In this document: positions 16,110 through 61,900 of the stretch, piece after piece | How positions within the stretch are numbered: position 1 is the stretch's first letter | How the letters are laid out: every line of letters begins with the position of its first letter | Assembly: GCA_044892525.1 (NCBI GenBank) | Contig: CM097885.1 | Location: 10,108,001-10,172,000, forward strand | Direction of reading: 5' to 3' | Length of the DNA stretch: 64,000 nucleotides | DNA from: Schmidtea polychroa | Lineage: Eukaryota | Program-made: the position numbers and the translations under genes | The notes under the pieces: generated by a model | Database searches by the model: none | What the model was told of the DNA's origin: nothing | The model's input: the letters and a program-made list of their open reading frames with translations, nothing else

Positions 16110-19100
16110 CTGGGCTCTACAATATTTCTTTTACACAAAGCATTAAAGAAAATAACAATTTACTTAGGATATTATTCTAGTAACAACTGGAAACTACCCA
16201 ACATAACTGGTGTCAAAAGTCCCTCGCATTCGACGATTTTCTTCAATCACTATGTCTTTCAGAATACTTATTATAGAAGTATAAAGGATAGTGATTCTTT
16301 TGGTTGAACACAGTAAGCCATATCCATGAACAAACTCATCTTTTGTTAGCACAGCAAGTAATAAAAAAACCATCAACAAACTAATAATGGCAACTGACCA
16401 AACAAATCCAACAAACATATCACAAACATCCAATAATGATGAAAACACACATGATGGAAAATACGAATTACAACTATAACTCAAACACCAACACGGATAA
16501 TACACACACCATAAACTCATTAATTAACCCGAGAACAAACATCCAAAACTACTTTAACGACGAAAATGGGACACCCCAAAAATGGCTAGAATCCGCCAAA
16601 TTAACCCTAACCTTATCGGAAATAAAGTCGACGAAAATGCTTTGTTCAAACATGATCACCCCACTCCCAAGTAGCAAACTGAACGAAATAGATGACCAAA
16701 TTGAAGAAATTGCAAAGAGAGAAGACCCGTTCAACAAACTTTGAAACGTTCTTACAAATAATAACAAAATCAATAGGAGGAAAATGCTGGAATCATGTCT
16801 CAATAATACACAACTTGACGACAATAAACCAACAGATTTCCTTCGCCAACTAAAACAAAAATTGGAGTACCTCCAAACAAATATAACTAATTCTGGATCA
16901 AATGAATTAGTAAAAGACTTTTTCATGCGAGGAATGCCGCCAGAAATAAGACGTATTCTCGCAGCCAGCAGCAATTCGGACGTAGAAACGTTAGCAGACA
17001 TAACAGATAAAATCAATGAAGAAATTTATCCACCTATATGCAGCACTCAAAACTACAACAGAAACAAAACAAATCACCACAACGAGCCAAGCAACAAAAA
17101 CACTGAACCAAACGAAACAACAAACCAACTAATAAACACTCTGATTAACAAATTCGATGAAATAATTGTCGAAAACAGAATTAGCCGAAATAGAAGAGAA
17201 ATACAACAAGCAAATTTTCAATTCAAACAAAAATAGAGACCTACACAACAGAAACAATTTCAACACAAACCAACCATCAGATAATCATAACGGACAAAAC
17301 TATAACCAATCATTAGACGGAAACAACAGGCAGAACTACAGCCGCAGACAATACCTAAACAATCACTACAGAAACCGGGTTAACTCCCCAAACCGATACA
17401 ACAACTACCGAAACAACAGCCTAGAAAAAGAATCAAAAATCCAGTTTATAAACAAAAACTACTGCTACTTTCACAACAATTTAGGTGACAAAGCATATAA
17501 ATGCACAAAACCCTGTGAATATCACAAAATAGAGCATAGAAAACTAAAACCGTCACTGTTAATAGCACCCACATTCAGTGACAGAAACAATACATTTTTG
17601 GTGCACACAAATAAAATTGACCTTCTAATCGACACAGGCTCCGTCATATCACTACTGCCTCACTACATGTACAAAAACGCAAAAAACACAGAAAAATCAC
17701 AAACAGTCGCAAATGGCTCTGGTATAAAAATATTTGGCCAGCACACACTAACCTTAACAATAAATTCACAAAAATACAACTGGTCATTCACAATCGCAGA
17801 GGTACAACAATCAATAATCGGAGATGATTTCCTAGCACACTACAACTTAATAGTGGACTGCAGAAACAAAAAATTAATTGAAAACCTCACATCAGACAAG
17901 AAAACCAGCAAGATTAAAACGACAAACATTTCAAAAGTTGACATCGGCGTGATACAAACAAGCACACCATATATTAAAACAATCAAAGCAATTGAACACG
18001 TTCCAAAAATAACTGCACTTCTGGCAAAATACGATAAGCTCAAATCACTCCACTGAACACGCCACCGAAATTAATGGAAACCCAATATACGCAAAAGTCA
18101 GACAACTAGACCCACAAAAGACAAACATCACGAAAGAAATTTTCCAGGAACTACTGGAAAACAATATAGTAACACATTCAAATTCAGACTGGTCATCAGT
18201 ACTAATGCTCAAACAAAAGGCAAACGGGAACTGGAGAGCTTGCGGAGACTACAGAATGCTCAACAAAATGACAGAACCAGATAACTACCCACTGCCGATC
18301 ATAAGAGATATAATAAATAGACTCAAAGGAGCAAATTTTTCTCAAAAATTGACCTGCAAAAAGCTAACCACCAAATTCCAATCAGAAAGGAGGACATTAG
18401 AAAAACAGCAATCGTAAGACCAATCGGCATGTTCGAATACAACCGAATGCCATTTGGTTTACGAAATGCAGCAGCAACATTTCAACGTTTCATGGATCGA
18501 ATCCTGAAAAACAACAAAAATACAATCGCATATTTGGACGACATATTAATAGTCAGCCCAAATAAAGAATCTCATCTAATAGACATAGATAAAGTGTTGA
18601 AAACACTAAACACAACAAATATCAAAATAAACTCCCGAAAATGCGAATTTTTGAAAAAAGAAATTAATTTTCTCGGGCACACATTAGAGTCGAATGATTA
18701 GACGAAAAGGGTACAACTCCTATCGAGAAAAAAATCAGTTCAATCCAACAATACCACTCCTATATACCAAATTGCAGCCAACTTTTAGCTACCCTAAACG
18801 ACCTAATAAAAACAAGACAAAACTGGACCGAGAGAGCAATCAAAAACTTCGAGAAAGCACAAACAAGCTTATCTCAAGCCACACTACTTGGATACCCGGA
18901 TCCAAAACGAGATTACAACTTAGCAACAGATTGTTCCAGATTTGCAATTGGAGCAACTCTTTACCAAGACAATGAATTTGGTAAAAAGTCTATTGGTTTT
19001 TTCTCTAAGAAATTAAAAATTTACCAAATAAGATATTCTACATTCGATCGAGAGCTGCTCGCAATTCATGAAGCCATAAAACATTTCCAACATCTACTAG

Positions 19101-21100
19101 AAGCAAGGAACTTCAAGATTTATACAGACCACAAACCTCTTACAAACGCGATAGAAATGAAAAATCCATCGCCTAGACAAATATGAAAATTAAAATTACA
19201 TATAACAATTCAACTGTACAATCAATTATATCGCTGGAGCAGCAAACATAGCAGCAGACATATTGTCAAGAACCGAAATTTTTGAAGTCGAAACAATCAA
19301 AAACAAACAAGTGGAAACACTACCAACAAAACATAGCCTAAAACTCGAACAAATCAACGATTGCTGGTACGACATCAGTAAAAAAAATAAACCAAGAATA
19401 CTCCCACCGAAAGAAAGCAGGAATAAGTGAATCTCAAAGATACACAACATCAATCACCCAGGAAACAAGGCCACATGCGAAATCATCCACAACAAATACA
19501 TATGGCCAAACATGCGAAAAGAAATAAAATATTTCGTCAAGACATGCAAAAGTTGTCAGATGAACAAAACTGCAAAAATAACTAACGGTTGAAAAAGTAA
19601 ATTTCCCAAGCAGCAAGCTTTCGAAACAATACACATAGACATAGTAGGACCATTACCACCAAATAACGAATACAAGTACTTACTAACGATAATAGACAGA
19701 AAGACAAACTGGTTCGAAATATTCCCACTGAAAGAAATATCCGTATAAAACCTCTGTAACAACATCGAACTAAACTGAATAGCCCGATATGGACAACCCA
19801 AAACTTTGATAACAGATCAAGGGAGACAGTTTGAGTCAGAACTATTTAATGCCCTATATAAAAAATATGAAATAAAACGTAACAGAACCACTTCTTACAA
19901 CCCACAAGAAAAAAGGGAAAATCGAAAGATTACATAGGAAACTTAAACAAAGCATTAGAACCAAAGAAAACGACAGAAATTGGCTCACCGAATTACCGAC
20001 AATTCTACTGGGGTTAAGGAACACCCCCAACTCAATCGACAACGACAGCCCTTCCTTTGCAGAGAATCAATCCTCCCATCTCTCGAAAACAAGACAACAG
20101 ATAATACAGAAACAAATAAACAAACAACTAACAAAAATAGCGGAAACATAGAAAAAGACCCAAAAGGAATTTTAGAAAGGAAACAAGACTCTAAATTCGA
20201 CGGAAAAACAGTACTAACAACAGATTGCATCCTAATAAAAAAAACCATTCACAAAAGGTTTTGAATACAAATACGAAGGACCATTCAAATTACTTGAAGT
20301 CAACAAAAACGTAGCCACAATAATCAAAAACAACAACAAGATGAAACTAAACATAAAGCGAATAAAACCCTACCACCAGAACCCAAAATACAAAACATAG
20401 ACTCAAACACAAAAAAAACACAACCAAACCACAAAAACATCACATTCAATTACAAACACTTAATAAAACTATTCGACAAAGACACAATAATCGCACCTCC
20501 ATACAAAAAACAATACACTCATGCCTCGCTATACGGCTGCTCTTTATACGGCTGCTCTTTATACGGCTTTTCGCTATAACGGCCTACTTTAATTACGGCA
20601 CTTTTCGATTTACGGCCTAAAATGTTTCGTTATACGGCCAAAAATCCTATTGAATTTATATGGAATTGTATCAAAATGTATTTGATTCGTTATGCGGCGT
20701 TTCGCTTTGCGGCCAACTTTCCTGGAACGTATCTAGGCCGTAAAGCGAGGTATGAATGTACAGTGAATGCATTAAATAAAAACTCACACAAACAGAACAC
20801 AAGCACAAACAAAAGCAGTTGTACAGTTTTTATTTCGTTGTAATTACGGAACAGTTCGTAATTTTTTTTTGTTTTATCCAGGTTGCATATAAAAAAGATG
20901 AAACAAAATAAATACAAAAACATACAAAAAACATACAAAAAAAATTAATAAAATGCTACCGAATGTTAATCTTCATGTTACTTTTTATATATGCATGTTA
21001 ACCTCCGATTTTAAAGGGGAAAGTTATGTACTATACTGTTATACTATTTTTTTTGTTTCATATGGATTGTAGTTTTAATAGTCGCGTGTTGCTTGTAGAA
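16110..21100 (+). mobile_element. Near full-length decayed Ty3/gypsy LTR retrotransposon
   Basis: LTR end ACATAAC then PBS-like TGGTGTCAAAAGT (~16208), gag with CYFHNNLGDKAYKCTKPC, protease LIDTGS, RT WRACGDYR / MPFGLRNA / YLDD, RNase H, integrase HIDIVGP, polypurine tract AAAGGGGAA and LTR start AGTTATGT at 21022; many frameshifts. Confidence 0.92.
20516..20758. mobile_element. Tc1/mariner-pogo-type MITE inserted in the gypsy 3' region
   Basis: TIRs CACTCATGCCTCGCTATACGGC / GCCGTAAAGCGAGGTATGAATG, TA on both sides, internal TACGGC repeats. Confidence 0.85.
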
Positions 21101-30900: not shown

Positions 30901-30916
30901 TTGTAATTTGTTATGA
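24913..30916 (+). CDS. RING-finger + beta-propeller (NHL-like) protein, TRIM-like E3 ligase paralog 1; predicted exons 24913-24933 and 29711-30916
   Basis: Main exon ELLNKLNEILECSIHHGIMINPKMFSCQHVFCYKC..CPICR followed by beta-rich repeats; acceptor ttcag at 29710; tentative phase-0 first exon MEDLTKS|gtaaga; AATAAA at ~30949. Confidence 0.85.
25132..26430 (-). mobile_element. hAT remnant carrying a nested hAT MITE (25504-26183)
   Basis: Minus-strand TLPVSTCTAERSFSPLKYLKSYLRNT; nested element with TIRs CAGAGCCGTAGCTA / TAGCTACGGCTCTG. Confidence 0.75.
27801..28232 (+). mobile_element. Non-autonomous Helitron (3' terminus clear, 5' end tentative)
   Basis: Hairpin CCGTCA-tttt-TGACGG (28206-28221) followed by CTAG|T at 28229-28233. 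Confidence 0.55.
29065..29596. mobile_element. hAT MITE
   Basis: Perfect 8-bp TSD CTTTCAAT (29057-29064, 29597-29604); degenerate TIRs AAGTGGCGTAAT / GTTACGGTATTG. Confidence 0.8.
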
Positions 30917-33240: not shown

Positions 33241-33719
33241 CGTTAAAGTTTTCATTACTCTTTTCATAATTATTATTATTATTATATTCGAATCAGTTTG
33301 TGATAGTTGCATATAGAAACCAGTGATCAATACCCAGTGACCTACAGCCAGTGATCAATAGCCAGTGACCTACAGCCAGTGATCAATAGCCAGTGACCAA
33401 TAACAAGTGATTAATAGTCAGTGACCAATTGTCAGAGACCAATATAATAATATTTTCATAAAATGACTCTATTTAAACAAGTTATACAAAATACTTTTAA
33501 CAAGCTCTAAATTGACATTTAGATACATCTACTTTGTTACGACTTATCTCAACTTAATGTAGCATTTTAATTTACTCATATTATATGTGATATATTATAA
33601 TACTTATTATATCATTATACTTATAATATATGTTTGATGATATATGCAATCAAAATTCATAAAAATAACAATAAACATACTACTTACTTTTAAAATTCCA
33701 AGTTTATGAAATAACAAAG

Positions 33720-35200: not shown

Positions 35201-36216
35201 AGACTCACACACCTCAACAAAATCACACCCAGATCACAAAAATCAAAAATCACACTCCTAAGGATCCATGTTTGAGAAAATTAATTTTTATATATTAATT
35301 TTTATAAATATTAATATAAATATAATATTTAATTAATAAATTTAAAAGAAACTTTAAAAACGTAAATAAATATAAAATTAAATATAATTATCGATGTTCT
35401 TTATATATCGTTAATACGATTTTATCATTGTATTTTAAATAAGATTTTTGGTTCAATAAAAAATATAAATAATAATCTAAATATAAATAAATGGATTTTG
35501 AAAAAAATAAAATAATATGTACTAAATATATAAAGAAATAAAAAAAGAAATCAAAATAAATAATAATTTAAAACTTAAATTAAAAGACAGTTTTTTTATA
35601 GTTGATCTAAAAGAAAATAAAAATTTTGAAGCATGTAAAAAATCGCTTTTCAAACCAAATCCCGCAGGTCAATTTATTGCTTCACATTGACACCAAATAA
35701 CATCGATATGCACAGATAAAACTTCAAAAAAAATCAAAATTCTTTAAGGGGATCTCACGAAAAGCCAAATATTCATGAGTTTTGAGATTTCATTTAAACA
35801 AAATTATCTAAAATTCACAAACAATAAACAAAACGTAAAGAAATGCAAAATGAAAGTGACAGTAAAATGAATATCACGTAGAAAATTTCCGCTTATAACA
35901 GATCTTATTTGGAAATGGTGTAAAATAAATATTTTGTTATTTCCACATAAATGCTGCCAAAATTGTATTTATTTCGTATTTTGTTAGTAAAAATAAACAA
36001 ATATTTATTAAAAAATTTCAAAGATATTGAAAAAATCTGAAAAGTGAAAAATGCAGTGGCGAAAATTCGTTAATATCAAAAACATCGATATATTTACTGA
36101 TTTAGTCTTCAAGCTCTTTTTAATAAATTCAATGGAAAAGAAAATCAGTGGTGAAATTGCGAAAAATATTAATATAAAAATAAATAGACAATAATACAAC
36201 ATTTTTAACTCTAGAT

Positions 36217-36670
36217 CAATCCATTTTATAGAAAATTAAATTTTATCTCTATAATATATGAATAAATATCCAAGGAAATTAAGTTAACGTATAATAAATA
36301 CAAATTTATCGTAAAAACATGTGTGTATTACACACAAAACAAGATACATAATTTCTAATCAATCCATTTTATAGATAATTAAATTTTATCTATATAATAT
36401 ATGAATAAAATCCTAAGAAAATTATGTTAACTGTATGAAAAATACAAATTTATTGTAAAAACATGTGTGTATTACACACAACATACGAGACATAATTTTT
36501 AATCAAGCTATTTTATAGAAAATTAAATTTTATCTATATAATATATGAATAAAAATCCAAGAAAATTACGTTAACCGCGCGAAAAATACAAATTTATCGT
36601 AAAAACATGTGTGTATTACACACAAAGCGACAAACTAAAATTGTAATTGCGCCATTTTGTAGAGAATTAA
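36217..36670. repeat. ~143-bp tandem repeat, about 3 copies
   Basis: aatacaaatttat.gtaaaaacatgtgtgtattacacaca and attttataga.aattaaattttatct recur at ~143-bp spacing. Confidence 0.9.
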
Positions 36671-36760
36671 ATTCTGCCTATACATGGTTACACTTAACTT
36701 CCAATCGGACAAAGAAAAAAGAGACAAAGGGATGAAAAAGAGATAAAAAACAGTAGAGTA

Positions 36761-39163: not shown

Positions 39164-40627
39164 TCATAATTTTTCAATTCTGCAGCTGAGCAGCAATTTA
39201 TCACTTTTGGCTGCTAATTCATTGATTGAGCGATCAGTATTATTATAAATACAAATTGGATCATTTCTGTCATCTGACGGTTTCATCCATCCGACATCAC
39301 GAGGGCGATCTGAATATTTCACTGACTCGCTCATATAAATGCTGCCATTTGCTGGATCGATCACATCGATTGTCACGGATTGATTGAAAGGCCAATCCAA
39401 TTGCTCATCATTTGCCCCACGCATCAAACAGAAAGCAAACCCAACCCAATTACCCATAATCAGCACCACCAAGCACATTTTGTAACCGATTGGCCCGGAA
39501 TAAAATGCCTCGCTGTAAATATTTTCATTTCTCTTTTGTTGTGAAAAGTTATCGATTTGCCATTCAAAAAATCCGTAATTTATATATTTTTAATTTCTAA
39601 TTTTGTTTCATTCTGCCGAATTTCATTGGTGCATTTCGCCATTTCAAGCTGCAACTGAATCTCAAATTCAAATATTTCAAATAATCAATAAATCACCTTT
39701 TCATTCTCAAGTTGCAGCCGCTGCTCGCATTTCTCTTTCATGTCATCAATTTGCAGTTGACATTTTGATTCAATCACCTCAATTTGCTGTCTGATCTGCT
39801 TTGCATCAATAACAAATCAATAACAAATAAAATAAATAATCAAACTTGATTGATTGATCCAATATTTGTCTCCATCTCCATTCTCAATGAGCGATTCTCA
39901 TTCTTCACTGCCACCATTTCCTCGTTCAATTCTTCTATTTTCCTTCTGTTCTCCGCCTCTTTCCTTTCAATATTGCACAATTTCACCTCCAATCACAAAT
40001 ATCAATAAATTAATTACAAATAATATTTACATCGATATTATCAAATTGTTGTTTGAATTGCGACATTTCTCCTTTCAATCCGATAATTTCGTTACGCAAT
40101 TTCATATTCTCATCTCTCATTGATTGTATCTCATTGCATAAATTACTGATCTGATTAATCAATAATTTGCTATGGCTTTCATTGTTCTCATTAAGATGGA
40201 CTTTCATTTCGTCCTTCTCCACCTCATTCATTTCACATCCAATTTTATTGAACGGACATCTGATTGGCTGCTTGTTGCATGTTTTAGTGTGGTTCTCCAT
40301 CATGCACAACTCGGTTTTGAATTCAAAATTTTGCATTGGGCATTTTACAATAACTTCAGATATTTTTAAATTCACTGAATGATCTACAGAAACATCTTTA
40401 GTGAAAAGAATCGTTTGAACTTGACAATATCTTGCTGCTCCTGGACAGAATTTATCTTTTCCTTCCAAATAATGCTCAATGCAATCAGAACAAAAGCGAC
40501 AACCGAATGCAGCTTGGCAAGCTTTTATCATTAAACATTTGCAAATTGTGTATATCAATTCACTGCTGATTTCATTATCAAATTCAAATTTATTTCTCCT
40601 CATCATTTCCCATACGCTTGCAAACAT
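39164..40627 (-). pseudogene. TRAF-family gene (RING, TRAF zinc finger, coiled coil, MATH domain), probably a pseudogene
   Basis: YTICKCLMIKACQAAFGCRFCSDC (RING with lost Cys), CPFNKIGC..H, coiled coil split by ~40-50-nt introns, MATH FEWQIDNF..YSEAFYSGPIGYKMCL..MRGANDEQLDWPF. Apparent 2-nt frameshift at ~39580. Confidence 0.85.
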
Positions 40628-41810
40628 TTTATCTAAAATTAACAAAATTATCAAAATATTTCAACATTCATCAATCATACTTATTATATTAATTATTTCT
40701 TCTGACTTTTACAATTTCAATATTTATAATTTGTATTTTAATGTAGATAAACTAACAATTTATAAATATTGTATTTTAGCTGAGCGTAATTCGAAATTTT
40801 ATTAATGTTAATTTTCATTTTTTTTATTTATTTTAAATCTTACAAAATTATTTAAATTCAAATTTGATAACAAAAAGTAAAATATTGATGGAAATTTAAA
40901 TAACATTTTTAAACGGAAAATCAAAATTAAAAATAGGTCAAAATATAAAAGTTTATATTTTTCATAAAATATTAAAATTAAAAAATATTAATTTAAAGAA
41001 TTTTATCTGAAATTAGATTTTATTTGAAGAGATTAGAAAAGAATTCAAAATCATCAGAGCAAAAATAGAAATTTAACAAAAAATTAATATTGTTTATTCA
41101 AATAATTTTTAACAAAATAACAAAATATTTTCATTCAATTTTTAAAGAAAAAGTTTGAATAAAATTTTACTGGGTAACACTAAACTGGTTATTAATGTAT
41201 TCAGAAATTGTTGGGTTTTGGCATTTGATCTAATGATCTCGTTATGGTTATAAATATTGGGAATGATCCACAATTGGATAAGGATATTTCACTGATCCAA
41301 ATATTAGAATATAATTCACTCAGAAGATTTAATCTAAATCTTGTATCAAGAATTTTATGAAATAATTAAAATAAGTCAAACGGGAACATGAAAATTTGTA
41401 GTAAAATGAATAAATAAATTAATTAAATATCTGTGTTAATGTTAAAAATTCAAATATTTTGTACGATTTGAATAAGTTTAAATCAATAATTATAAAACAA
41501 TTAAATATTTCATTATGAAATTATTAAAATATTTCAAAGTTTTTCAAAATTCATAAATTATAATTAAAAATAATTATTTCCTCTTACTTTTGAAATTTCA
41601 ATATTGAAAATTTGTTTATTGGTGTAGATAAACAAACATTTTGTAAATATTGGTTTTTAGATTAAATTGAGATTTGAAATTCGACTAATGTAAATTTTTC
41701 AGTTTTTTTTATTTATTTGTAACTTAATTTCCAAAATTTTTGTTAAAACAAAATTAATATTTTTAAATATCTTTCAAAATTATTTAAATCAAATTTTGAA
41801 AACAGAGTAA

Positions 41811-43563
41811 TGTTGGGCTAGAACCGATAATTGAGAGCTTGTTTTAATGAATCAAAAATATATAACATAAAAATCGCACCAAGTTTAATTAAAACACTAA
41901 TCAATACAAATTAAACTACATAACACATTGATGATAAATAAGACCCGGGTAGTAAAATAAAGGAAAGCAAAAAAAGGCCACGATCACTAACACAATTAGG
42001 AGAAACATCGTATTCGGAATAGCTAACAACAAAAAAAATAAAATAAAATAATAATAAATAAAGTAATGGGCAATAAATTAATTAATAATATGAAAAATTC
42101 TAAATAAATAAATTTAAAATAAATTATCTAGTAAACTGGTAAAATGATAAAAAGTAGAATAAAATTATTAAATTAGATAAATTATAAAAATTTATAAAAT
42201 CAAATTGTTTAAATCAATGAAACTAAAATAAAATTAACTAAACTTATTTAAATTATAAAACTTGTAAATCTAAATTAAAATTAGCAAAAACTATTTAAAT
42301 TATAGAATTATAAAAATAAATCTTAAAAATTAATATAAATAGAATTTTGATTAATTAAATTAAAAAAATAAACAATTGCACACAATTATGCATGCATGCA
42401 AAAATTAATCAGAATTGCCTCGCATTCTAATTGGACATAGTAGCAGAGAATGCGTAGGTGTACAATTCTATTAGTATAAATACGGATTGAAATTTCAGTT
42501 TAACAACTGGTTAAACTTGTTCAACTTGTGCAATCAGAAATTCAAAAGACGTTATCAGGAGCTCTCAATTTTTGATGTATGCCATCGCGGTAAGGTAAAT
42601 TTAATTTTTTGTATGTTAGATGTAATTTTGTTAGGTTTAATATTATCTAAAAATTTTTTTAGTAACAATTTTTAAATTGAAGTTGTTTTCCATTTATATT
42701 GATATTTTATTTTTTTATTTTTCTGTTGTTCGTTAAGTGTAATGTTATATAATTTTATGAATTAATAAAATTTTAAATAGAAGTTAATTTTCGGTAATAT
42801 TTTAACAATAAATATCTTATTTATTTTGACCCGGTTATAATTTTAATAATACTTGTAGTTGAATTGATTTATAATAAATTTATGTGCCGATGCTTTAGAT
42901 TCAGCGGAATAGTTGTGAACTGATGACATTCATGTCGTTGGTCAGCAGATGTTTCGTCAGTTTGGTCCATCGGATAGTTTAGGGCCTTGTTTATGTCTAG
43001 ATAGAATAGAGTGGCTCAGTCACTTTTAATTTCATAGATATCACTGAGTTAGGAGACATAATAGGATAGTTATGAACTGTTGTCGGTAGATGAAGTAAAT
43101 TTCTATAGAAACCACGAATAGTTAAGATATCCGATAGTCCAGGATTAGAAATACAGGCGGATCCCTGCTCAAACTTTTATGAGAAGTGTGGGAACATGTT
43201 TATTAACTTGGGAATAAGGGCAGACCCCTAATCAACTTTTCGAAAAATTAAGTTACATTTTTCATAAGAACTGCTGAAAATATGGAACGACATTTATCGA
43301 CTGGGAAATAAATTATCGACAAATATTATAAAAACCCATAATGATTTATGATAGGAAAATAAAAGCACATCACTGCACAAAATTTTGGAAAGGAACAATA
43401 GAAAACATCCAGAAATGAAGACCATAGTTGAATAAAATAGAAAAGTACGCAAATGGTTAAAGTACAATAGTCATGGACGTGCTTAGGAAAGAGTCGAGTG
43501 AATACCTATGATTACTCCTAACGTATTTAAAATTTAAAATGACACACCCCTAAGTAACCAACA
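41811..43563. mobile_element. Long solo-LTR-like repeat (copy B, inverted relative to copy A)
   Basis: TGTTGGG...CCAACA termini; 43452-43563 is nearly the reverse complement of 37372-37495. Confidence 0.65.
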
Positions 43564-45499
43564 TGATTTTTGGGGGCTCAGCCGGTATTTATCAATAAAA
43601 ATCGTCTTTGTCAAAAGCCAATTCTAACTACAAAATTTCGAGATCAAAAATGACTTTCAATCGAAAACCTAACGTTAATAAGAAAACGAAAAATTTTATA
43701 AAAGTGAAAACAATAAATTAAGAGAATTCAAAATTAAATATAGTTTAGTAATTATATTTGAGTAAAATTTATATTGTAGTAAAAAGTATTTTGGCAACCA
43801 TAAAATTAGAAAATTTTAAAACTAAAAATTATTTAGGAAAATGGAATTACCTACAGTTTTACTTTATTTTATTTGTTTTTATTTTTGTATTCTCCACTCT
43901 CCATTGCTGTGAGTGCCCACTGCAACACGTGTGTGTGCGGCATCGTGAAATTAATTATTCAATTGTAGCTAGTTTTAAGGAAAAAATATGCATGATAAAA
44001 CCAAGAATTCCAAAATAAAATAATGCAGATTTCTTTAAATTGCCGCGTAAAAATAACTTTTACTCTTTGTCTAGTCGTAAGAAAAAAAATCAGTTACCCT
44101 TCTTGTGGAATTAATAATCTGGTCAATCTGTTTCGTGGAAGTTGTTAAAAATGTATTGAAGATCTTTTTAACTTGTTGGATAGATGAGAAGGTTCTTGGC
44201 TAAAATATTCAAGAATGTGCGTATCAAAAGGATAATGTATGTGTATATCACTGACTATAGGATCAAAAGAATGGAATGAAAATGATTTCCGTTCGGTTGG
44301 ATTTTTGTCAATTCAAAAATTGGAATTTTAGTTATGATGGAGTAAGTAAGTTAGGTTAATGTTGATAAAAGGAAATATGAAATTCTTTTCAGCTAAATTT
44401 GTTTTAAATGATCGGATGATTGAATGGCGGTTTGGTTCGGGTTTAACTGGGGATTGGTTGTTTGTGCTCTTAGTCATATTTGTGTCAATAATTTGTTGAA
44501 TGTTAATGATGAATATTGCCAATACAGGGAGTTAACAGGTTGCTTCCTAAGGAACTTTTATGGTGTTGTGTTATGTTATGTCATCGAGTTTCAGAATTGG
44601 CGGATCCCAATCATTGGTTTTGACATTGCACAGGATAAACTGAATTCGTCTGATTAATATATCTTATTATATGCATTTTAGATTGAAATTGAATGCGCTT
44701 GTTTTGAGTAAGTATTTAACAAACTAATAATTAATAAATAGGAAGATTAATTAGAATTAATGGTTAATAAAATAAATTAAAATTTGTATTCGAATAATGT
44801 GCTAATAGTTTGGTAATAAATATTTCTGAATTGGTGATAATTAATTTTCAAAAGATTTTTCCGAAGTAATAAATTGGTAGGTTGATAGAGTGACCATTCT
44901 TAAATTACATGTATGTGTCGGCCAGATGATGTTTAAGAAAATGAATATGGGATGCTTGTTTATTGTAACTCGGTGTAAGTTTCGAATGCGCTTTGAAAGC
45001 CAGGTATAGGGTTGTTTGAGTGAAATGATAGCGTTAGAGTTTGAAAGCAAATGATTTTGGTATTGACCACATCACATTACCTTCTTTATCCATCGGTAAA
45101 TCGGGAATAGTATCCAAAGATGTCAAAATACATTATGGTAAAATGGGAAATAGGAACAGCAAAAGATAATTAAATGAACATTCAAATAAAAATATAACAA
45201 AACACAACAAATAATAAAACACCAAATATCAAATAAAACGAATGGTAATCAAGTCCTTAACATAGAGATAATTGAATCACCCATTAAGATATAGCTTCTG
45301 CAAATGCTAATTCAGGATGAGTAATATTGTGAAAAGGATAGTGCCCGCCCATTCTTCTGAATGAACACAGTACTGGAGAAAGAAATATATCTAAAGATAT
45401 GTAGATCGGGCGAAACAGAGCGGGGTAACAAAATCTATGAAAAGAGACTAGGAAGTAAATACAATGAAAGGCATCGAAACATCGCTGGTAAAATGATAG

Positions 45500-48180
45500 C
45501 TACTTGTCATCAACATAGAATAAATAAAAGCCTTAAGTAAATGAATGAAAGTAAGAACTGAACGTGGCTGCAAGACAAATGAAAAGAAAAAACTGGTTGG
45601 GAACTAAACTAGAGACAATCGCGAATAACCCATTAATAACAATCACAGTATAAAAGTGAGCAGAAGTAAATCGAAAAGGCACAAGAACTAAATTAAAATT
45701 GACTGGACAACTTTGCAAAATAGGCGAACATCACAGGCATCAAGGATATGTAGAAAATGAATTTTAAAATTTATGTAGAACGGCTCAAGAAGTTAACAAA
45801 GTAAATAGAGAAATTTATGAAAATAAATACACAAGACACCGGAATAACATGGTATATATCGACAAATGATCCAGCGAAAGAAACCAAGAAGCCCAATGTT
45901 AGCCAAAGAAATATGAAAATACAGCACAGTTATACGCACAATGCTCATATTAATAATCGGAGAAACTATGAAATGAGAGCGAAGGACGAAGTACAAATAG
46001 TTAAACAAATCCAGCATAGTATTCATAGAAAATTGTTATAAGATAAGGAGTAAAATATTCCGAGAGGGAGGTGGAATGAGCAGAAGATCACCGTAGCTGT
46101 ATTTTGCGTTATAGAGAAAACAACGAACTATTATCATGGTCATAACATTGAAAAGAGATGGTAATGGCAGAACTGAGTGCCAAAAAAGAGGACTAATTGC
46201 ATAAAAAATAATCGTATATATCGGTGTATACACCACAATCAAAATAATATATAATAAAGGACCGATCACCATAAACAAAGATAAAATAATGCGAAAAATC
46301 AAAAATATTAAAATGTTCGCTTATTGAAGAGTAAAGAAAATCAATCAGAGAAAATGGACGTTTGGGAAATATTCTAGAGGACACGAGAACAAAACACTGA
46401 GAACCGAGAGAACACAATATAATAAATAAATAAAATAATGAATGTTGCGGACGACATTTTGCGTAGACGCGGAGGATAAAAATGAGAACAAACTAAGATA
46501 ACAACAAACGGGAGACCAGGATGAAAGTCAAAATTGAACAACAATAGACATGAGCAATAATAAGAACAATCGGAAAAAATATACAAAAACATGATTGACA
46601 GAAAATGAAGAGCACACATATAACAAAATAGAATATGAACAAATAAACACAATAAAAATGACAAGGAAAACAGAACGAAATGAACAAACATGAAACAACA
46701 AATAACAAATTCACAGAAGGAAAGCAAGGGCAAAGACATTTGAATGAAAAATCAAAACGGCAAGAAACGACAAATATAAAATGAAACACGATGCAATGAA
46801 ATAGAACAAAAAATTGAAAGCTTAACATCACGACACGGCCAATTAAAATAACAAGAGGCACTAACAAAAATGAGATCAATAAGAAACATCGAACAAAGTT
46901 TTAGTTATGGAAAACGAACATACAGCCTACTTTTACTATGGAACAAAAAGTTACAATAATGAAAAACGAACGGACTGTCTACTTTTATTAAGAAACAAAA
47001 AGTTACAATTGCGGATATTCGAATAATAAATTTGAATAATTTGAATAAATTCAGAAATAATAAAAGCAATAATATCAACCACTCCAGGAACAGCTAGAGA
47101 GAAACGCGTATAGATGTAGGTATACGGATATAGGTGGATATGTATATATGAATACATGAGTATGGATAAGGATATATGTAGACATATATAAACAATTAAA
47201 TGAGTTAATGAAAATAAATGAACAACCAAAGTTACGTGCCAAAAGTAAAATAGCAAATAGGCGCGGAAATAAGTTAAAAACATAAAATATAAGGAGTGGA
47301 ACAAAGAGGCCCATCAACAGAAAAACAATTAACAAATTTTGAAAACGTAAAATATACGAAATGAGGAACATTATGATGGGGGAAATCAGTGAGAGGTAAC
47401 ATAAAGAATCAAAGCTAAGGAAAATATACAAATACGGAAGTGTGATAAATTACAAAATTGAGCAGGGATGTTTAGTAAATAAACCATTAACGAATAGAAG
47501 GGTAACGAATAAAATGGATAAACAAATATTAACGAGTGATGCGAGAGGGATATGCCTGAGGAAATAGTGAGTATATTAACGAGAAATAAGTCAACCGAAA
47601 CAGTGATAGTAAAAGCGACAGCAATAAAACATTAACCAAGTAAGAAAAGTGGATATATTTAGAGTAATAAAAAATGATCAAGTGTAACCAAGACAAGTAA
47701 ATTAAGGGCATGACGTATAAATGAGAATAGAGGTATTGCGAAAATTGAGAGCAAATAAATAGGGCAAAGGTTTTCTGTTTTAAGAAATACACAACCCATG
47801 AGCTACACTTAGCGTAGTACGAATAAGGTCCAGGGAAGTATTGACAACAATAATAAAAAAAGAGGAATATAAAGGGTGACCAATATAGTAAACGTAGGAA
47901 ATTATTAAAATTGGAAACAAACGCGAACAGAATAAACTACATCAATGGAGAAAATTAAGATAAAAACAAGAATGCAATGTAATACAAGTCAATAGACAGA
48001 GATAAGCCCAGGAGAAAAGACAGTTAAAGTAGAGAAAACTATAGAAACGAAGAAAAAGAATGTGAATTAAAATATGAAGGATCGAAAAATTACGTAGGAA
48101 TTTGAGAACCAATGTGTAAACAAAAATAATGACGAAATAAATATTGAGATATGCCAGCACCCAAAGAAACCAAAGTAAAA
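45500..48180 (+). mobile_element. Highly decayed APE-type LINE (RTE-like)
   Basis: Strongly A/G-rich strand. Residual KRW*WQN..NC..N..RC..RTDHH near 46150-46275 resembles an endonuclease C-terminus; faint RT-like motifs further on. Confidence 0.4.
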
Positions 48181-48249
48181 ATATTGCAATTGCACAATAT
48201 TATATATATATATATATAATAAACGATAAGGAGAAGTGATATTTTTCTA

Positions 48250-49960
48250 TTCAGGTAAATCAATCAATCAAGCCAACAGCTAAGTATCAACAATCAACCA
48301 GAAGTTATCGCCAAATAATTAAGCCAAGTTCGGAAATATTGAGCCAATAGCAAAGCATACCAGATCCAAACAGTCAATAATAGAACCAAGTTTATTGAAG
48401 GAAGAAGAATTAAAAGCTGCAAAGAAAGGAAGGCGGACTATTAAACCCACACAAGCACAAGAAATCGAAAAGAAAAATAAAAGAGACATCTCAAAAACCA
48501 AAAGTCGATCCCTAAAAGAAAGTGGTGAAAAGAATTTCGAAAACAATAGGTCAAGAAGCGTAGTACGCGGATCAGAACCTCGGGAAGGAAAAACTTTATC
48601 CAAAAACAGAAATGATAAAAGTGACATAAACCTAATAAAATAAAAGACAAACACTCTTCTGAAAAGAAATGATTTTGAAGGCTATGGATTTAATTTACGT
48701 TCGGAAGTCAATAAACCCGGTCATTTTATCGGTCACATTCAAGCGAATTCTCCAGCATTCCAAGCTGGACTGTTAACAAACGATTCTTTCATTGAAGTAA
48801 ACGGCTTCAATGTTCGTGGCGAAAACCATCAACAAGTTGTTAGAAGAATTAAAGAAGAATCATCGATGCAGATGAATACTATTATCGTAGAGCAAACAAG
48901 ATTAAAATTACGAAAGATGATAATCGAACTAATTCCCACGAACCATTAATGTTGTTAGCTGCAACTGCAGGGATATTCAGTCCTTCCAATGACAAATATT
49001 CCTCGTCAACTAAGAAGGACCAAACCACAACAGGCTATATCTGGCACGACATGTCAAATGAAAATAAGAAAAGAGTGATGGTTCCAGCAGAATACCGAAA
49101 TGACTTCATCAAACCATTCGACAATATAAACTCATGCATACGAATGTGGTATGGCTAAACATGAGGAAATATATCAAAGAATTTGTCAATTTATGCATAC
49201 ACTGTCATAAAAACAAAACAGCAAAAGTCGGTTACCCCACAACAGAACCTTTCGAAACAAAACACATAAACATTGTTGAATCACTGCTACCCAACAACAA
49301 ACACAAATACTTACTCACAATAATTGAGCGAAACACAACTGATTCAAGGCAATCACAATCAAATAAACCTCATTAGCATCAATCTGAAGAAAATTAGAAC
49401 TAAAGTGGTTCGCGAGATAAGAATTCCCAAAAACATTAATCAAAGATCAAGGCAGACCTTTTGAGTCAAACCAATATAGGGGACTGTGTTCAAAATACAA
49501 AATAAAAAGTCAGAACTACTGCATATAACCCACAATCAAACGGGAAAGTAGAAAAATTACACAACACCAATCTACCGAATATAACGAAAACTGTCAAAAA
49601 ACAAAAGATCAAACAGACAAAGCAAACCAAAAAGTAAAAGAATTTATAGAAACAACAAAGAAAACATGCACAAAACAAGCATATACTGTACAAGTTTTAT
49701 ATATTTTTTATTTATTGATGTTGTAAATCACAACAACAATAAACAAAAGGAGAAAACACAAAAAATGTAATTGTACATTTGAATTGTTGATACGCTTTCA
49801 TTTAAATCTTATTATCTTTACTTTTTTGCCATGGTCAACGTTCAGAAATATTGAAAAAATATAAACATGTTAACCTCTTGTTGTAAAGTGGGAAGTTATG
49901 TACCGTGTTTTATTATGTTGTTGTTTAATTATATTTGTTTATTATTTTGTTTTAATTAAT
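48250..49960 (+). mobile_element. Non-autonomous gypsy derivative containing a PDZ domain
   Basis: Integrase remnants (IWHDMSNENKKRVMVP, WLNMRKYIKEFVNLCIHC, TTAYNPQSNGKVEKLH) and CATGTTAACCTC..AAAGTGGGAAGTTATGTAC, matching the PPT/LTR junction of the 16-21 kb element; left boundary uncertain. Confidence 0.75.
48644..48949 (+). pseudogene. NHERF/EBP50-type PDZ domain reading frame (not in the ORF track)
   Basis: LLKRNDFEGYGFNLRSEVNKPGHFIGHIQANSPAFQAGLLTNDSFIEVNGFNVRGENHQQVVRRIKE. Confidence 0.9.
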
Positions 49961-51626: not shown

Positions 51627-52366
51627 ATGTATTTTTAGTCGTATAAACCGCAGCGCGTATTAGCTGCACCATTTGCGTTGAAAACACATGATTTTAAAAT
51701 CAGCAACCTATCATTAAAAAACAAATTTCACCGTGACAATAACCATTTTGTTTTAATCGTTTACATTGTTTATTGCACTGTTTTGAATCCTTGATTAAAA
51801 TGGATAACGATTCTGAACAAAAACAAAAGAAACAACGAAGATCTTTTAGTTCAACAAAGAAAAAAGAAGTTATTAAATTAGCTCGTCAGTTAGGAAACAT
51901 ACGAGAGGTTGCAAGACGATATGATATTAATGAAACTGTTATTCGACGATGGATCACCCAAGAGTCTGTTATCAAAGCAATGAATCCAAATCGAAGATCT
52001 TTGCGTGGTGGTAACGCTAGATATCCGGAATTGGAAACGAAATTACACGAATGGATCCTAATTCAACGTGAACGAGAACTTCAAGTGTCGGTTGTTCGAA
52101 TTCGTTTACAGGCACAAAGAGATGAAAATTGAAGGATTTGAAACGAAATGAATGTGAACGAGTCTGATCCAAACATTGTAGAATTACTAGAAAATTTCAC
52201 TTTTATTGACAATGAAAAGTGTGATGGTTTTGAGGAGTGTGATGTTGAAAATTGAAATAAATAATCTTATCTTCGATTTGAATTGTTTTTTAGTTGTATA
52301 AGCTGCAATTCAGAAATGTTGCCTTAATGTACGTATTAGCTGCAGCTTATACTCGGGATTTTACAG
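51627..52366 (+). mobile_element. Internally deleted pogo element (Brinker-like and CENP-B HTH domains only)
   Basis: ORF 51773-52132: RRSFSSTKKKEVIK..VARRYDINETVIRRW..YPELETKLHEWI; right TIR GCAGCTTATACTCGGGATTTTACAG|TA. Confidence 0.8.
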
Positions 52367-55900: not shown

Positions 55901-58900
55901 TTATTATCTGATTTTTATTCTTTATTATTATTGTTGGGTTTTATGATACCAAATATTAACCGTTGGTTACTCTGACTCCACGTGTTCCAAAAATTAATAA
56001 ACATAACTCCCAACGTATATTTATTTTACAGAAAATTTACAATTCTCACTAAATAACGACACTTAATTAACCACACTTTTCTTACAATTCTCGACCTTGA
56101 ACAATTTAAAAATAAGTTTCACCTTTTGTTTGATTCCGCTCTCTGATCCGAACTCTTTTAATAATCCTTTCTGACTCCTCAATTCCTCTTATTATTCTTT
56201 TTCTTCTTTTATTTTATTCCTCGAACTCCTATCGTCTGTTTCTTCTTCCTTACCTAAGGCTACCGCCGATTATGTGAATTTTGAATTTCCTTATATACTC
56301 TCATAATCGTTGTAATTGCCCTATTTTCGACCTAATTGGTTTTGACTTCTTTAGTTATCATTTCCTAATTAGTTATTTCTGTTAACCCTCTTTGTAATTC
56401 CCCTTCTTTTGTTTACCCTCCTTTATCCGGCTGTTTGGATAATTGCCCTCTGAATTCCTCGTTTGTTTATCCTTCCAAATTGCCATGCTCGGGTTTTCTT
56501 CATCGCTCGGGTTCTTCATTGGCTCGGGCTTCCCATTAGCTCGGGTTACCCATTAGCCAATTAATTAATTAATTAATATTTTGTGTTTTTCCATATTTTC
56601 CTGTTTAACGACCCTTTCTAAACATTTTCTAACAATTTCTTGCTCGCTGTCTTCTTCACCATCCCATAATCAACCCCTCTCCCGTTTTCCAACTTCAATT
56701 TCGATAACTTTTCACTTTATTCCACTTCCTCAGGTTTGCGCATTTTCCCATTTCGTGTCTGATTGTACCCTTTTATAGTTCTGTTTTTATCATATCTGGT
56801 TAACTATCGGTTCACGCGTCTGTGTGCGCTTGTTACTTTTTTTGGATGGATTTGTGTGCGCACACAGACGCGGAAAATTGTGGAATTATAATTTCGGTTT
56901 TTATCTTTTATTATTAATATTAAAATTATTTTTAAATTTTAAGTTATTTTTGAAATTATTTCTGGAATTATTTTTGGAATTATTTTTAAGATTATCATTA
57001 CCATTAAAATTACAATTATAATTATTTTCAAAGAATGATTTCAAGTTTTTATTGTGTTCATTTTCATAATCATCTTTTATTTTAAAATCATTTTTAATTA
57101 AAAAATATAAATCATTCTTTGAAAAAATATCATAAAAATAATTCTGATAATTAAAATCCTGTTGCAAAGATCTTCTCATCACATTGGACAAGGTAACTAG
57201 AGACTTTGCATGTTTATCCTCTTCGAACTCCTTCTCGTCCTCATGGTCCAGGATCATCCTATCATATATTGGTATGCACTGGAACTCAAGCTCCTGATAG
57301 TGCTGCAAGCTCGGTTTTGTAGTCTATCTTTTTGCCTGAAAACAAGTCAAAAAGATATCCAAATATGTAAAACTTATTCATTTCGGCCCCAGTACTGTGA
57401 ATGTTGTATTGCAGTAATTCAAATAAGCTCTCGGGACTTTTACTTGTTTATCCAAAATTTTCTTCACGTTCATTAGATCTATAAAATACTTTAGTTTTTA
57501 ATTGACACTTGCATAATTAAGTAATAATAAATTTCAATGTAAAGAATACGCTTGTTTTAATGAAGAATTTTTTTGAATATCGGGTTTGAAATTTGTCGTT
57601 CGATTTTATAATAATAAAATTCCCAATTGTGGATCGGTTATCTGCGTTCAAGTTTTTGATTTGACAGCTTTCATTCTAGAAAAAGTCTGAGTTTACTCTT
57701 TTTGCATATTTACTTCAATATTATTTATAGGTTTAAATAAATAGGATTTTGAAAAATTAAAAAATTTTAATTTTCTCCTACAATATCTTTAATAAAATTT
57801 TAGAAAAAATTTTGGTTCATGTATACTTATTCCCAGGGGGTGCTGGTAAATTCGTAACAACCGGCTCGCATTTTTTTTATTGCCAACAAACGGCTCGCGC
57901 GAGCCGGCTCCAGCACACCACTGCTGTTTCATAATATCCTGAATTTTCAAGTGTGCGTTAGATAAGGAATGTTCTTTAATTTTTTTGCGAAGAGAAGCCT
58001 GTCTACTATCTTTTTCAGTTCCATTTGGAGTTATGGAACACAAAATCCATTGCTTAGAAACATGTACTTTTTTTTCTGTCTCAGTTGCTAAACATTTAAT
58101 TTGCGAACAATCTTTACATCCTAATTTGCCATCTTTTATTATCAGCCATTTTTATTGTTCTGTAAATAAACTTACTTGCTTTTCATTCCAACAATCAGGC
58201 AATTGGGTATTAATATTGGTATTTGAAAATAAATCTTCCTCGATTTCTACAGGTACAACAGATGTTTCTTCAATATGTTCGTTAAAATCAGGTGTTATGA
58301 GATTTGAGTTTATTTGTGTAACTGCAGAATTGTTTAATCTGTTGCCAATTGTTTTTTCAGTCATTGTCGGCTGCGGAGCAAAAAACGACAATAAATTTCC
58401 CTGTTTTCTCTTCATTTTGGGTAAACAATTACTATAATTTACATAAAATTAATATTCCTACCTGCAGTTATACGACAGGTTTCAAATTGAAGGTAATTGA
58501 AGCAGCCGAACGTATCGGAAATAGAGGAGCATCTAGAGAATATGGACTCAGTGAAGCTAATGTAAGGCATTGGAGAAATAATAAAAATACTTTAAAAGAG
58601 TGCAGATCCTCTACAAAGGCCCCTGGCAGAGGGAGGAAATTATTTTTTCCTGACGTGGAGAAAAAATTGGTTGAATATGTTCATGAAAGGCGATTTTCAG
58701 GTTCCTCAATATCCACTGTAGAAGTTAGATTGAAGGCTTTAGAGTTAGTCAAGGAGATGTATCCTGGTTCAATATTTAAAGCCTCGGCGCGCTGGTGCCA
58801 GGTCTTCATGAAAAGGAATGATATTTCTATAAGAAGAAGGACTTCGATTGCACAGCGACTGCCGGATGATGTAGAAAATAAGCTGCTCGACTATCAGAAA

Positions 58901-61900
58901 TATATAATAAATTTAAGGAAAAGGCATGAATATCCAATTAGTTGCATAGCAAATGGGGATCAGACTCCACTAAGTTTTGATATACCTTCATTTCAGACAT
59001 TGGATTTCAAAGGAGTCAAGTCCGTACCTATTAAAACTACAGGCAACGAAAAGAATCGGTTTACAGTTATGTTGGGAGCTTATGGTGACGGCAAGAAGAT
59101 GCCGCCTTATGTAATTTTTAAAAGAAAATCTTTACCAAAGAACATTCATTGGCCAGCTGGTATGATTGTTAAAGCACAAGAAAATGGATGGATGAATGAG
59201 GAGTTGACTAAGGATTGGATTAAGACTATTTGGTGTAATGATAGAAAAGATGAATTTCGAAATTCAAGGAGGTTACTGGTATTAGACGCATTTAGATGCC
59301 ACCGTATGCCATGCGTAAAGGAAATTTTGGCAAAAAACAAAACAGATCTTGTGATTATTCCTGGAGGGATGACCGGGCAACTCCAAGTTATGGATGTAGT
59401 TTGCAATAGGCCATTTAAACAAGAGATGCGAAAGAGATGGAATGAGTGGTTTTTTTCTGGAGCTCCATCATTTACTGCTTCTGGAAACAGACGAAAGGTT
59501 GATTTAGAAACTATTTGCAAATGGATTCAATTATCATGGGATGCAGTTAGTGAGGCAATTATTATCAAAGGATTCAAGAAATGTTGTTTGAGTAATGCTA
59601 TGGATGGATCAGAAGACGATGTTATTTGGCAGGACGATATATCTGATGTAAGGAATGAGGATGATGATATGGAAAATGAATTAATCTTTGAAGAAGTGGA
59701 CGAGTCCATTGAGATTGAGAATTTGATAAAAAGTGAAGATGAAAATAATGATCTCTGTAATGAAAAAAACATTCTGTAACTAATAAAGAAATATTTTGTA
59801 TTAATTTATGCTTTATTTCCCTTGCCCATACCGGGTTTTCAGAAAATTTTCTGAGTAGGAAAAAATATTTCCTGTTATACCCATGTATAAGACGCACCAC
59901 GATTATCATCCCCAAAAGTGATGAAAAAAAAGCGTCTTATATTCGGATAATTACGGTAATTTGTTTTAATATATTTTAATAATAATTATTACTTACCTAT
60001 TAGGAATTGTAAATTTAGTTTTAATATTTTTATATTAAACTAGCTAGCTATTAATTTTATTTTATTAAACTAAAACGTGTACACATTAATACATTCCAGC
60101 CTAATATGAAAGACTATGTAAATTGTTATAGCAATACAAAACTATATATAACATAAATTCAAATATCAAAGCTTACTACCATCAAAATAAGTAATTAACG
60201 GTTAGTTTTAAATTTTTGTTTGGCAATTCAATTAATTTAACAACCAGCTCGGCGATTTTTTTTATTGCCAACAAACGGCTCGCGAGAGCCGGAGTGAGCC
60301 AGCTCCAGCACACCACTGCTTATTCCCCCTAGCGCAGTGTTTCTCAACCCAAAAAGCAGTACGGACCGTAAATAATCTCAATTTTTTTTCACGACCCGTA
60401 AATTCAGTTTGACTTTACAATCTAATAAAATTAATAATTTTAAAAAAAGTTAACAGATGAACAAAATATTTATTATAAAAGGATCAACAATAACGAAATC
60501 AAAACAATTAGAAAAATAATTTTATAAATTAATGTGATTGTTGTTGCTCTTTCTCTCGTACCAGTTTGTCTATTCTTGGTTTTAAAGAAGTGATAGCAAG
60601 TCGCAAAGCAGGGCCAGTAAATAACCTGTTTCTTTGCTTCGTTTTAATAATTGACATTGCTGAAAATGCTGATTCACACAAGTAAGTTGTAGAAAAGGGT
60701 AATAAAATGTGAATGGCAATTTTTCTGAGGGCTGGATATTCCTCCTTGACTTTTATCCAAAACTGTGTAATGCTCATTGAGTTAAACATTGATTTCAATC
60801 CCATATCTGATGATAACTCAATCAATTTTTCTGCTTCTGTGTTTGAAAGGTTGTTTTGTTGGTGATCAAGAAATGGATTGGATATCCACATGTTTCCAAA
60901 TCGAACATCGTCATTAGGTGGATAGTAGCTAGGGCCTAGCGGGAATAAGTATAAATGTGTAAATTAATATTATTAATAATATTAGAAATAATATTAATAA
61001 TTATATACAATTTTGTTACAGATGTCTAACATTAAAATAATATAAAATAATATAAACATTACAAGCTTGTAATGTTTATATTATTATATACAAATAACTA
61101 ATAAATCTATAGTAATTAATAAAACCAATGACAGCAAACGAAAGTTATATAATAAATTTATTTTCGAGGGATACTTCAGAAATAATTTCATTTTTTCAAA
61201 GTAAAGGAATTTTACGAAGTAGAATGAAATGTGAAGACTGCTCTACACAAATGATGATATGTATATGTAGAAAAGTAAGTGACGGTAAAGTTTGGAAATG
61301 CATGAATAAAAATTGTTTGAAATATAAATCTAGTTGCTCCACTAGATTTGGAAGTTTCTTTTTTGACTCGCGTCTATCATCGAGAACATTATTAGAACTT
61401 AGTTATAGATTATCTAATGAAGAAAGAATACAAGGAGTATGCAGAGAATTGTCAATTAGTAGAAAAAGTGTTGCATTTTCCCCCACGTTTATTTCCTTTA
61501 TTTCAGCGCTTGAAACTGCGTTGTGATCTCCAATCCCATGGCAACGCCCAACTTAACAATTTTATCAACAACATGCTGATCTTGAAAACCATCTTTCCAT
61601 ACATTTTTCCATGCAGAATTCATTTTTCGGGTGGTGACTTCGTTCCATGCCTTATCAATTAGCCTTAAACAATGGAGGATATAAAGTGATTTTTCAAAAA
61701 ATCACGCAATATAAGCTTGGTCTCTAACGTGACCTCAAAATATCTTGGAAACTGTGCTTCTGTAAACAGTTTCTTTAAGTTATAAATTACTTGTTGATCC
61801 ATGGGTTGAATCAGTGGAGTTGTATTTGAGGGTAGATATGTAATGCGAATATAATCGTAATCACCAGTTAAAGCGTCTTCTAAGCCAGGGGGATGAGTAG

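Follow-up and report, generated by a model that had tools for sequence, protein, structure and literature searches.

Coding 5' ends of host mRNAs, including an NHERF-type PDZ, inside the LTRs of gypsy elements of Schmidtea polychroa

Capture of host messages by LTR retrotransposons has been described as LTR-mediated retroposition, a template-switch capture between the LTRs for which the available part of Tan et al. 2016 (PMC5131818) also cites maize Bs1 and Ty-captured mRNAs. The retrocopies described there replace part of the internal ORFs between the LTRs and disable the element. Host RNA sequence within the LTR itself is found in the TRIM elements Cassandra, Helenus and Ajax, apparently for the element's own expression; according to the available section of PMC10886601, it consists of 5S or tRNA sequence that serves these miniature, non-coding elements as their polymerase III promoter. 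The planarian giant gypsy Burro/GYPSM1 has a gag polyprotein to which host domains are fused, one of them ubiquitin/SUMO-like; these lie in a 4,873-aa internal ORF, and the available extract of PMC6431247 reports none in LTRs. Leader fragments occur at flatworm LTR loci (PMC12582326, available in part), and the Gag motif CX2HX9CX3C is given for the CsRn1 clade in the available portion of PMC2582038. Coding mRNA cargo inside LTRs was absent from the literature reports we found and goes unmentioned in the available parts of PMC4558846, PMC11410931, PMC8532177, PMC10899757 and PMC2770079; the families may be catalogued in Repbase or in the 2018 planarian genome supplements.

The window, the whole 64,000-nt stretch of S. 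polychroa DNA that was analysed (contig CM097885.1, positions 10,108,001 to 10,172,000), lies in a 781-Mb AT-rich animal genome. It holds a PDZ domain that is cargo inside the LTR of a gypsy family other than that of the neighbouring gag or integrase. Judged by homology, host mRNAs (NHERF, Nit2, KIAA0319-like, isochorismatase) have their 5' ends stacked just ahead of the LTR end, both in this old family and in a young sister family. The cargo resembles the retrocopies in the available part of Tan et al. 2016 in being spliced sense-strand mRNA pieces, often in frame, with multi-gene chimeras and further rounds of spread, and perhaps in short similarity at joins. Unlike those retrocopies, it lies between LTR head and tail, at both ends of the element and in solo LTRs; mRNA 5' ends are favoured, cargo is swapped serially, and gag-pol is left open in the young family. 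In contrast to Cassandra, Helenus and Ajax, the cargo is protein-coding mRNA in gag-pol elements, and no meaningful Rfam match to a small-RNA gene was obtained in four LTR loci. The Ty3/gypsy features are present: TG..CA repeats with target site duplications (TSDs), a PBS, a PPT and the pol order RT-RNase H-integrase. The CHCC Gag motif CX2HX9CX3C was found in seven of nine old and young loci scanned, and at window position 17463. PwRn1 and AgCR of the CsRn1 clade share this motif, doubled in the old and young families here, and the RT-RNase H-integrase order. As the available portion of PMC2582038 gives a tRNA-Trp PBS and a 4-bp TSD for that clade, with 381-bp LTRs in PwRn1, and the families here have 5-bp TSDs and coding LTRs of 0.7-1.3 kb, they were filed as CsRn1-like only.

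An earlier note, made from the letters alone, had read 48.3-49.9 kb as one non-autonomous gypsy element with the PDZ fused behind gag and replacing protease, RT and RNase H. Most of the parts it listed were recovered. The PDZ is near-complete, intronless and NHERF-type (48665..48868, + strand; Pfam PF00595, E 6.7e-9), gypsy integrase remnants follow it at 49125-49568 (Pfam, tblastn), and a PPT with the start of a 3' LTR lies at 49859..49903 (+), 82% identical over 45 nt to 20987-21031 in the 16-21 kb element. Protease, RT and RNase H gave no match within 48.3-49.9 kb by domain search or tblastn. The parts do not form one element: comparison with sister copies showed one family giving way abruptly to the next at 48651-52 and again at 49032. 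What lies here is a dead mosaic of three broken elements side by side, belonging to family A, the PDZ-bearing old family and family C, and because three families meet here at sharp borders, the gag-PDZ-integrase order is read as a nested insertion plus a deletion.

On the left, family A contributes the 3' part of its 5' LTR followed by a PBS-like motif (42973..43566, +; matching both LTRs of a family-A copy), a long non-coding leader (45386..48322, +; 70-92% identity to other copies) and the first 110 codons of its Gag frame (48323..48652, +). The last of these is the "basic ORF" of the earlier note; it does share a frame with the PDZ across one stop, as stated there, and extends over 48323-48643 rather than beginning at 48395. 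The reference family-A copy has LTRs of 1076 bp that are 99.4% alike. An 877-aa Gag frame is present in four copies (Retrotrans_gag, E 6e-5), and no pol frame of at least 300 aa was found after it. Family A amounts to hundreds of candidate copies with ~1.08-kb LTRs, a several-kb leader and a conserved Gag-only frame (window 42973-48652; L082, L358, L359, L361), for which a helper would supply Pol. Identity with Burro, marked by a giant gag-to-pol ORF1 and a length above 30 kb, was ruled out by the 877-aa frame, the lack of a pol frame after it and the 1076-bp LTRs; three CCHC knuckles are alike in family A and Burro1, whereas the 877-aa frame and the 1.08-kb LTRs differ from what the available extract of PMC6431247 describes.

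The join between Gag and PDZ (48651..48652, +) is a deletion join with 2-nt microhomology. With 48250-49250 as the query, the best 40 of 598 candidates were scored; all matches except the locus itself stopped by query base 404, and no other scored match crossed the join. It was missing from all 19 other fetched family-A copies, each of which runs on into CCHC Gag, and the 21 other PDZ loci listed all have flanks that differ on both sides from those of the window copy. The stop at 48641-43, private to this copy, sits in family-A Gag, 8 nt ahead of the join. The check proposed in the earlier note, whether this TAA is a sense codon in the consensus, gave a stop in 0 of 18 readable copies of family A. 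The frame common to the basic ORF and the PDZ is a one-off deletion join, a 1-in-3 coincidence. A family in which the PDZ is fused behind gag would account for parts lying in that order at a single locus and for the frame shared by Gag start and PDZ; against the 19 family-A copies without a PDZ, the 21 PDZ loci with other flanks, and LTRs of different families to left and right, such a family is highly improbable. With an LTR of family A on its left and an LTR stub of family C on its right, the stretch does not make up a unit able to transpose.

To the right, a decayed integrase region of family C (49033..49568, +; Integrase_H2C2, tblastn; 68% DNA identity to 19501-19934) was likely the target into which the PDZ-LTR element had inserted. 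A family-C-type gypsy element with PBS, CHCC Gag, decayed pol and PPT lies at 16207..21031 (+). The PDZ-LTR element would have inserted into a family-C pol gene and been reduced to a single LTR; a later deletion likely removed the front of this LTR and also truncated a family-A element. Immediately ahead of the 16-21 kb element, for which no 5' LTR was found, window 14949-16103 (-) holds what we take to be non-LTR retrotransposon remains (RT tail and endonuclease-like motifs). Elsewhere in the window, an intronless 411-aa frame (29681-30916, +) and a 216-aa frame (40010-40660, -) are presumably a RING-finger and a TRAF-like RING/zinc-finger protein, by motif. Frames of Pogo/Tc5-type transposases occur at 51743-52132 (+; by domain search) and at 58322-59779 (+) and 62016-62549 (-; both by motif), and tandem arrays of 14-nt and 144-nt units at 33306-33459 and 36146-36720.

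The closest named relatives of the PDZ are NHERF1/2 (homologue search; NHERF1 structures). The copy in the window is part of the last third of a ~1.2-kb gypsy LTR of the Nit2+Y+NHERF subfamily (48651..49032, +; 86% to positions 814-1214 of the solo LTR L060). This piece stops at the exact LTR end shared with sister copies, with no PBS behind it, and finishes in a conserved LTR tail (48997..49032, +) common to LTR variants with other cargo. It has no start codon of its own, and a 22-nt deletion after 48857 throws it out of frame with its own LTR end; the window's own PDZ copy is dead and ordinary.

Genome searches gave 59 protein matches to the PDZ family, a few of which are two pieces of one copy. 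Complete old-family copies are ~1.2 kb long with TG..CA ends, and the PDZ is present in 18 of 28 such LTRs, in a collection enriched by the searches used. TSDs agreeing in at least 4 of 5 positions flank 22 of the 25 complete old-family repeats without a PBS (15 perfectly; shuffled mean 1.7, maximum 9); for PDZ-bearing LTRs without a PBS, 5-bp duplications at this threshold were seen in 14 of 17. The sister copies thus show the PDZ to be a separate insertion with its own TSD, the case that had been named as counting against the earlier reading, although the copies are many and not a single one. Capture of a host NHERF message, presumably spliced, by a gypsy element, followed by spread, holds; its place and mode change: inside another family's LTR, not between gag and integrase. 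In L073 and L151 a PDZ-bearing LTR is followed by a PBS and then by decayed gag and pol. None of the 59 matches revealed an element with two PDZ-bearing LTRs, and a PPT was observed in young copies and in L159, with none seen before a PDZ-bearing 3' LTR. Old-family RT/RNase H remains are 50-76% identical and keep the RT-RNase H-integrase order. No continuous frame from PDZ to Gag was seen in the old family, whose PBS copies are open only shortly beyond the PBS, or frameshifted. A bacterial promoter scan stayed at chance level and is irrelevant here.

The 1.2-kb unit, which has TSDs, short inverted termini and pieces of several genes fused together, might also be a DNA "pack" transposon of Pack-MULE, Ginger or Helitron type carrying gene fragments. 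The same ends, however, have PBS, PPT and gag-pol beside them, the pieces have lost introns, and the two-LTR elements of the young sister family ruled the idea out, leaving it a negligible probability. Rearranged copies with inverted LTR pieces were seen as well (L086, L087, L096, L073); their PBSs include more of a tRNA-like 3' end, which would fit copying of the primer beyond its normal stop. Five LTR-PBS joins of the clade lie within 17 kb at G000:C309:12626-29919, three of them at 1727-bp spacing; this is either a tandem array or an assembly artefact.

The window PDZ had been described as better preserved than the integrase beside it, which was taken to hint at recent capture or selection. 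Its preservation is not unusual. In a DNA tree of 40 PDZ copies, which sorts roughly by cargo layout (2 of 37 branches well supported, no true root) and groups the window copy, with weak support, with Nit2-bearing copies, its end branch was 0.049 against a median of 0.041, an ordinary age. Nothing pointed to recent capture or to strong selection. The pN/pS value was 0.68 (all pairs, 31 copies), compared with 0.77 for the Nit2 piece, and the PDZ copies appear to drift almost neutrally. A working PDZ, selected because it would, for example, anchor particles to membrane proteins, could be argued from the binding-loop motif, intact in many copies, from a pN/pS slightly below 1 and from the frequency of the domain in the search-enriched set of complete LTRs. 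We consider it very unlikely, as the value is near that of the truncated Nit2 cargo, sister variants lack the PDZ, and the domain would lie upstream of the likely cleavage site.

The cargo variants of the old family keep the LTR head and tail and differ between them (Y+NHERF, Z+NHERF, Nit2+Y+NHERF and PDZ-free forms); a macro-like+Nit2+NHERF variant includes a 292-aa open Nit2-PDZ chimera in L168. The macro/GDAP2 name for one cargo is weak (E 0.13-0.17), and four further cargos remained without a name after searches. The NHERF cargo is a fragment, not a gene: it consists of the first PDZ and a short linker, with no further domains or C-terminus. Where it has its own leader, the ATG is retained in 3 of 7 copies, one of them shifted. 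The parental NHERF gene proposed in the earlier note was not found with the cargo protein (72/72 candidates scored), the PDZ family (150/183 scored; 50 loci checked by tblastn) or an outside NHERF query (78/78 scored), searches in which small exons could hide one. Upstream of the PDZ, many copies have a Nit2 piece (nitrilase PF00795, best structure Nit2) whose start corresponds to residue 1 of the resident protein. The 43-nt first intron of the resident gene is missing from this piece, and its similarity fades within ~12 nt of an exon end. Cargo has thus lost the introns of both intron-bearing parents (KIAA0319-like, Nit2); the parent of a lipin cargo is intronless at that place. For the isochorismatase and W cargos, no parent was seen among the best 40 of 160 candidates, where it would be crowded out. 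Joins between cargo and LTR tail fall at many different positions. Of 10 LTRs, 3 have an A-run where the cargo begins and 7 have none, and one poly(A) contig ends ~80 nt into a cargo.

The young sister family is better preserved. A pattern of LTR end plus PBS gave 41 genome matches (control 0). The PBS sequence reads as a tRNA 3' end, which we take to be of tRNA-Leu type in these families; ARAGORN reported no tRNA in the loci examined. LTR pairs are 100% (L157) and 99.6-99.8% (L155) alike, with TSDs, and a TSD flanks 24 of 24 young-family solo LTRs. Both LTRs of a young element carry the same cargo. A 915-aa frame begins within this cargo, reads across the LTR end and the PBS, and continues through a ubiquitin-like domain (PF00240) and the core of Gag; the young Pol, of 1129 aa, has RT, RNase H and integrase. 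Five main cargo types were found among 54 complete young LTRs: KIAA0319-like, isochorismatase, ENGase-like and two unnamed. The isochorismatase cargo matches from residue 7 of PDB 2b34 (E 7e-8). The ENGase-like label is our assumption from a motif, and searches of Pfam, PDB, NCBIfam and homologues gave it no support. The KIAA0319-like cargo (PF23597) has its parent at L299; it starts ~70 nt before the ATG, lacks a 47-nt GT-AG intron and stops at the end (donor) of parent exon 2 (0 to +1 nt), with 1-3 nt of microsimilarity at the 3' join. At this cargo end, contigs from three runs in two studies, whose RNA nature is guessed, continue into other sequence, presumably the host's next exon; among the contigs listed, with the same guess as to their nature, none ran upstream in the parent. 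In one young variant the 5'-end cargo is immediately preceded by the 3' end of host lipin (98%), whose join falls within an exon and shows 8 nt of microhomology. Host lipin itself is one unbroken frame of ~700 aa over the fetched stretch (L331, C1:164578090-164581883). Inside the long Gag N-terminus of one element (L157:7393-7723), contigs match short blocks flanked on both sides by unrelated sequence, which suggests further host captures between the PBS and the ubiquitin-like domain. LTR positions 9-50 of L157/L084 resemble, as we judge them, a planarian spliced leader, a likeness for which Rfam gave no match; this stretch follows 8 nt common to the old family, where a splice-acceptor-like motif is found instead.

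The cargo shares its reading frame with Gag. Over the 120 nt before the tail, the Gag frame is open in every one of the 12 cargo types, and none of the 24 other sense frames is; the types were hand-picked as well-preserved, and as two pairs share a piece, ~10 are independent. This test replaced a longest-open-frame count (38/53, 14/16) that was inflated by tail stops and related copies. For NHERF, Nit2, KIAA0319-like and isochorismatase, homology fixes the frame of the cargo, and in all four it is that of Gag. The ubiquitin-like domain ends in Gly-Gly just ahead of the Gag core in the young copies and in old-family L149 and L199, and in Cys-Gly in L147. Ubiquitin insertions in cytopathic pestiviruses and ubiquitin-ribosomal protein fusions contain a host-cleaved linker that frees the downstream protein, and a comparable role for the Gly-Gly unit here is only an analogy to these. 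Cleavage behind Gly-Gly by deubiquitinases of the host would release Gag, and for that reason the cargo need not work as a protein.

The cargo likely donates a start to Gag, judging from its N-terminal pieces and the frame. It might instead be a passenger, with a separate initiation codon for Gag close to the PBS or downstream of it, and with stops or shifts in the cargo lost since they would trigger decay or block read-through. An in-frame ATG lies at the old-family PBS, which may make a start within the cargo dispensable in that family; the cargo also drifts almost neutrally and is freely swapped. In the young family, however, TTG stands in place of this ATG and the long frame begins inside the cargo, and every verified cargo supplies its own N-terminus. 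We regard a passenger as somewhat unlikely; it would leave the anatomy intact and alter only why the frame is kept.

The anatomy, the mRNA origin, the nesting, the shared frame and the copying of cargo as part of the LTR are shown by the sequences. We consider it probable that this gypsy LTR family carries intronless host mRNA 5' ends, stacked in one frame before the LTR end, which were likely captured by template switching in reverse transcription and likely kept as the start of Gag. Minus-strand synthesis would begin at the PBS, copy the short tail and slip onto a co-packaged host mRNA; reverse transcriptase would then run to the 5' end of that mRNA and jump to the 3' end of the element RNA. 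New cargo would replace the front of older cargo, building the stack, and a slip at the jump itself would capture host 3' ends such as that of lipin. Only in-frame captures would spread, because Gag must presumably be translated from or through the cargo.

The stop of the KIAA0319-like cargo at the parent exon-2 donor counts against random slipping and is better explained by splicing. If an element sat in a host intron, or if trans-splicing went wrong, 5' exons of a host gene might be spliced to an acceptor close to the end of the LTR, and this chimera would then be copied. The Nit2 similarity also fades close to an exon end, and planarians trans-splice (PMC12582326, available in part). The tail joins, however, fall at many positions rather than at one acceptor, the KIAA0319-like case is the one clear one, the KIAA0319-like join lacks a preceding AG in the ENGase-like variant, and the lipin 3' end was joined mid-exon at microhomology. 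Capture by splicing is therefore unlikely, and template switching remains our preferred account.

The Nit2 cargo is 49-50% identical to the resident protein (L184, C3:21550066-21550459), about as distant as a monogenean ortholog (52.5%). Its dN against the resident gene was 0.32-0.39, with dS saturated in 12 of 13 comparisons, a pattern unlike that expected of a neutrally decaying copy of the resident gene. No closer donor was present among 56 of 56 genome candidates, and a public search with the Nit2 cargo returned one flatworm protein at 42%. The cargo may derive from a paralog that has since been lost, it may have been captured very long ago, or it may have come from another species; given this distance and the NHERF parent not found, horizontal arrival of the old family is possible. 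In a separate locus (L198:70-1545), a long frame opens with a ubiquitin-like unit whose last residues are Gly-Gly; the frames downstream of this long frame look to us like BEL/Pao pol.

A wider 'borrowed leader' life cycle is a tentative proposal, doubtful as a whole. In it, LTR elements would routinely swap their RNA ends for host mRNA 5' or 3' ends, use the host start codon for Gag, and shed the borrowed peptide by a host cut at the ubiquitin-like linker; the habit would have arisen in both gypsy and BEL/Pao, solo LTRs would seed shuffled-domain ORFs open at the 3' end, and the PDZ-family cargo would record a former host species (the Nit2 and NHERF donors being absent here), that is, horizontal transfer.

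Gene capture by LTR elements is usually rare and crippling; here it is repeated, LTR-confined, ordered and frame-keeping, in elements that remained capable of spreading. Dozens of 'NHERF' and 'nitrilase' hits in the genome are LTRs, which makes them an annotation trap. The cargo LTRs are also an engine for domain shuffling, as in the open Nit2-PDZ chimera. If the mechanism holds, the retroelement outsources its translation start, and its LTRs would be a countable record of the host mRNAs that enter particles and of the points at which reverse transcriptase jumps.
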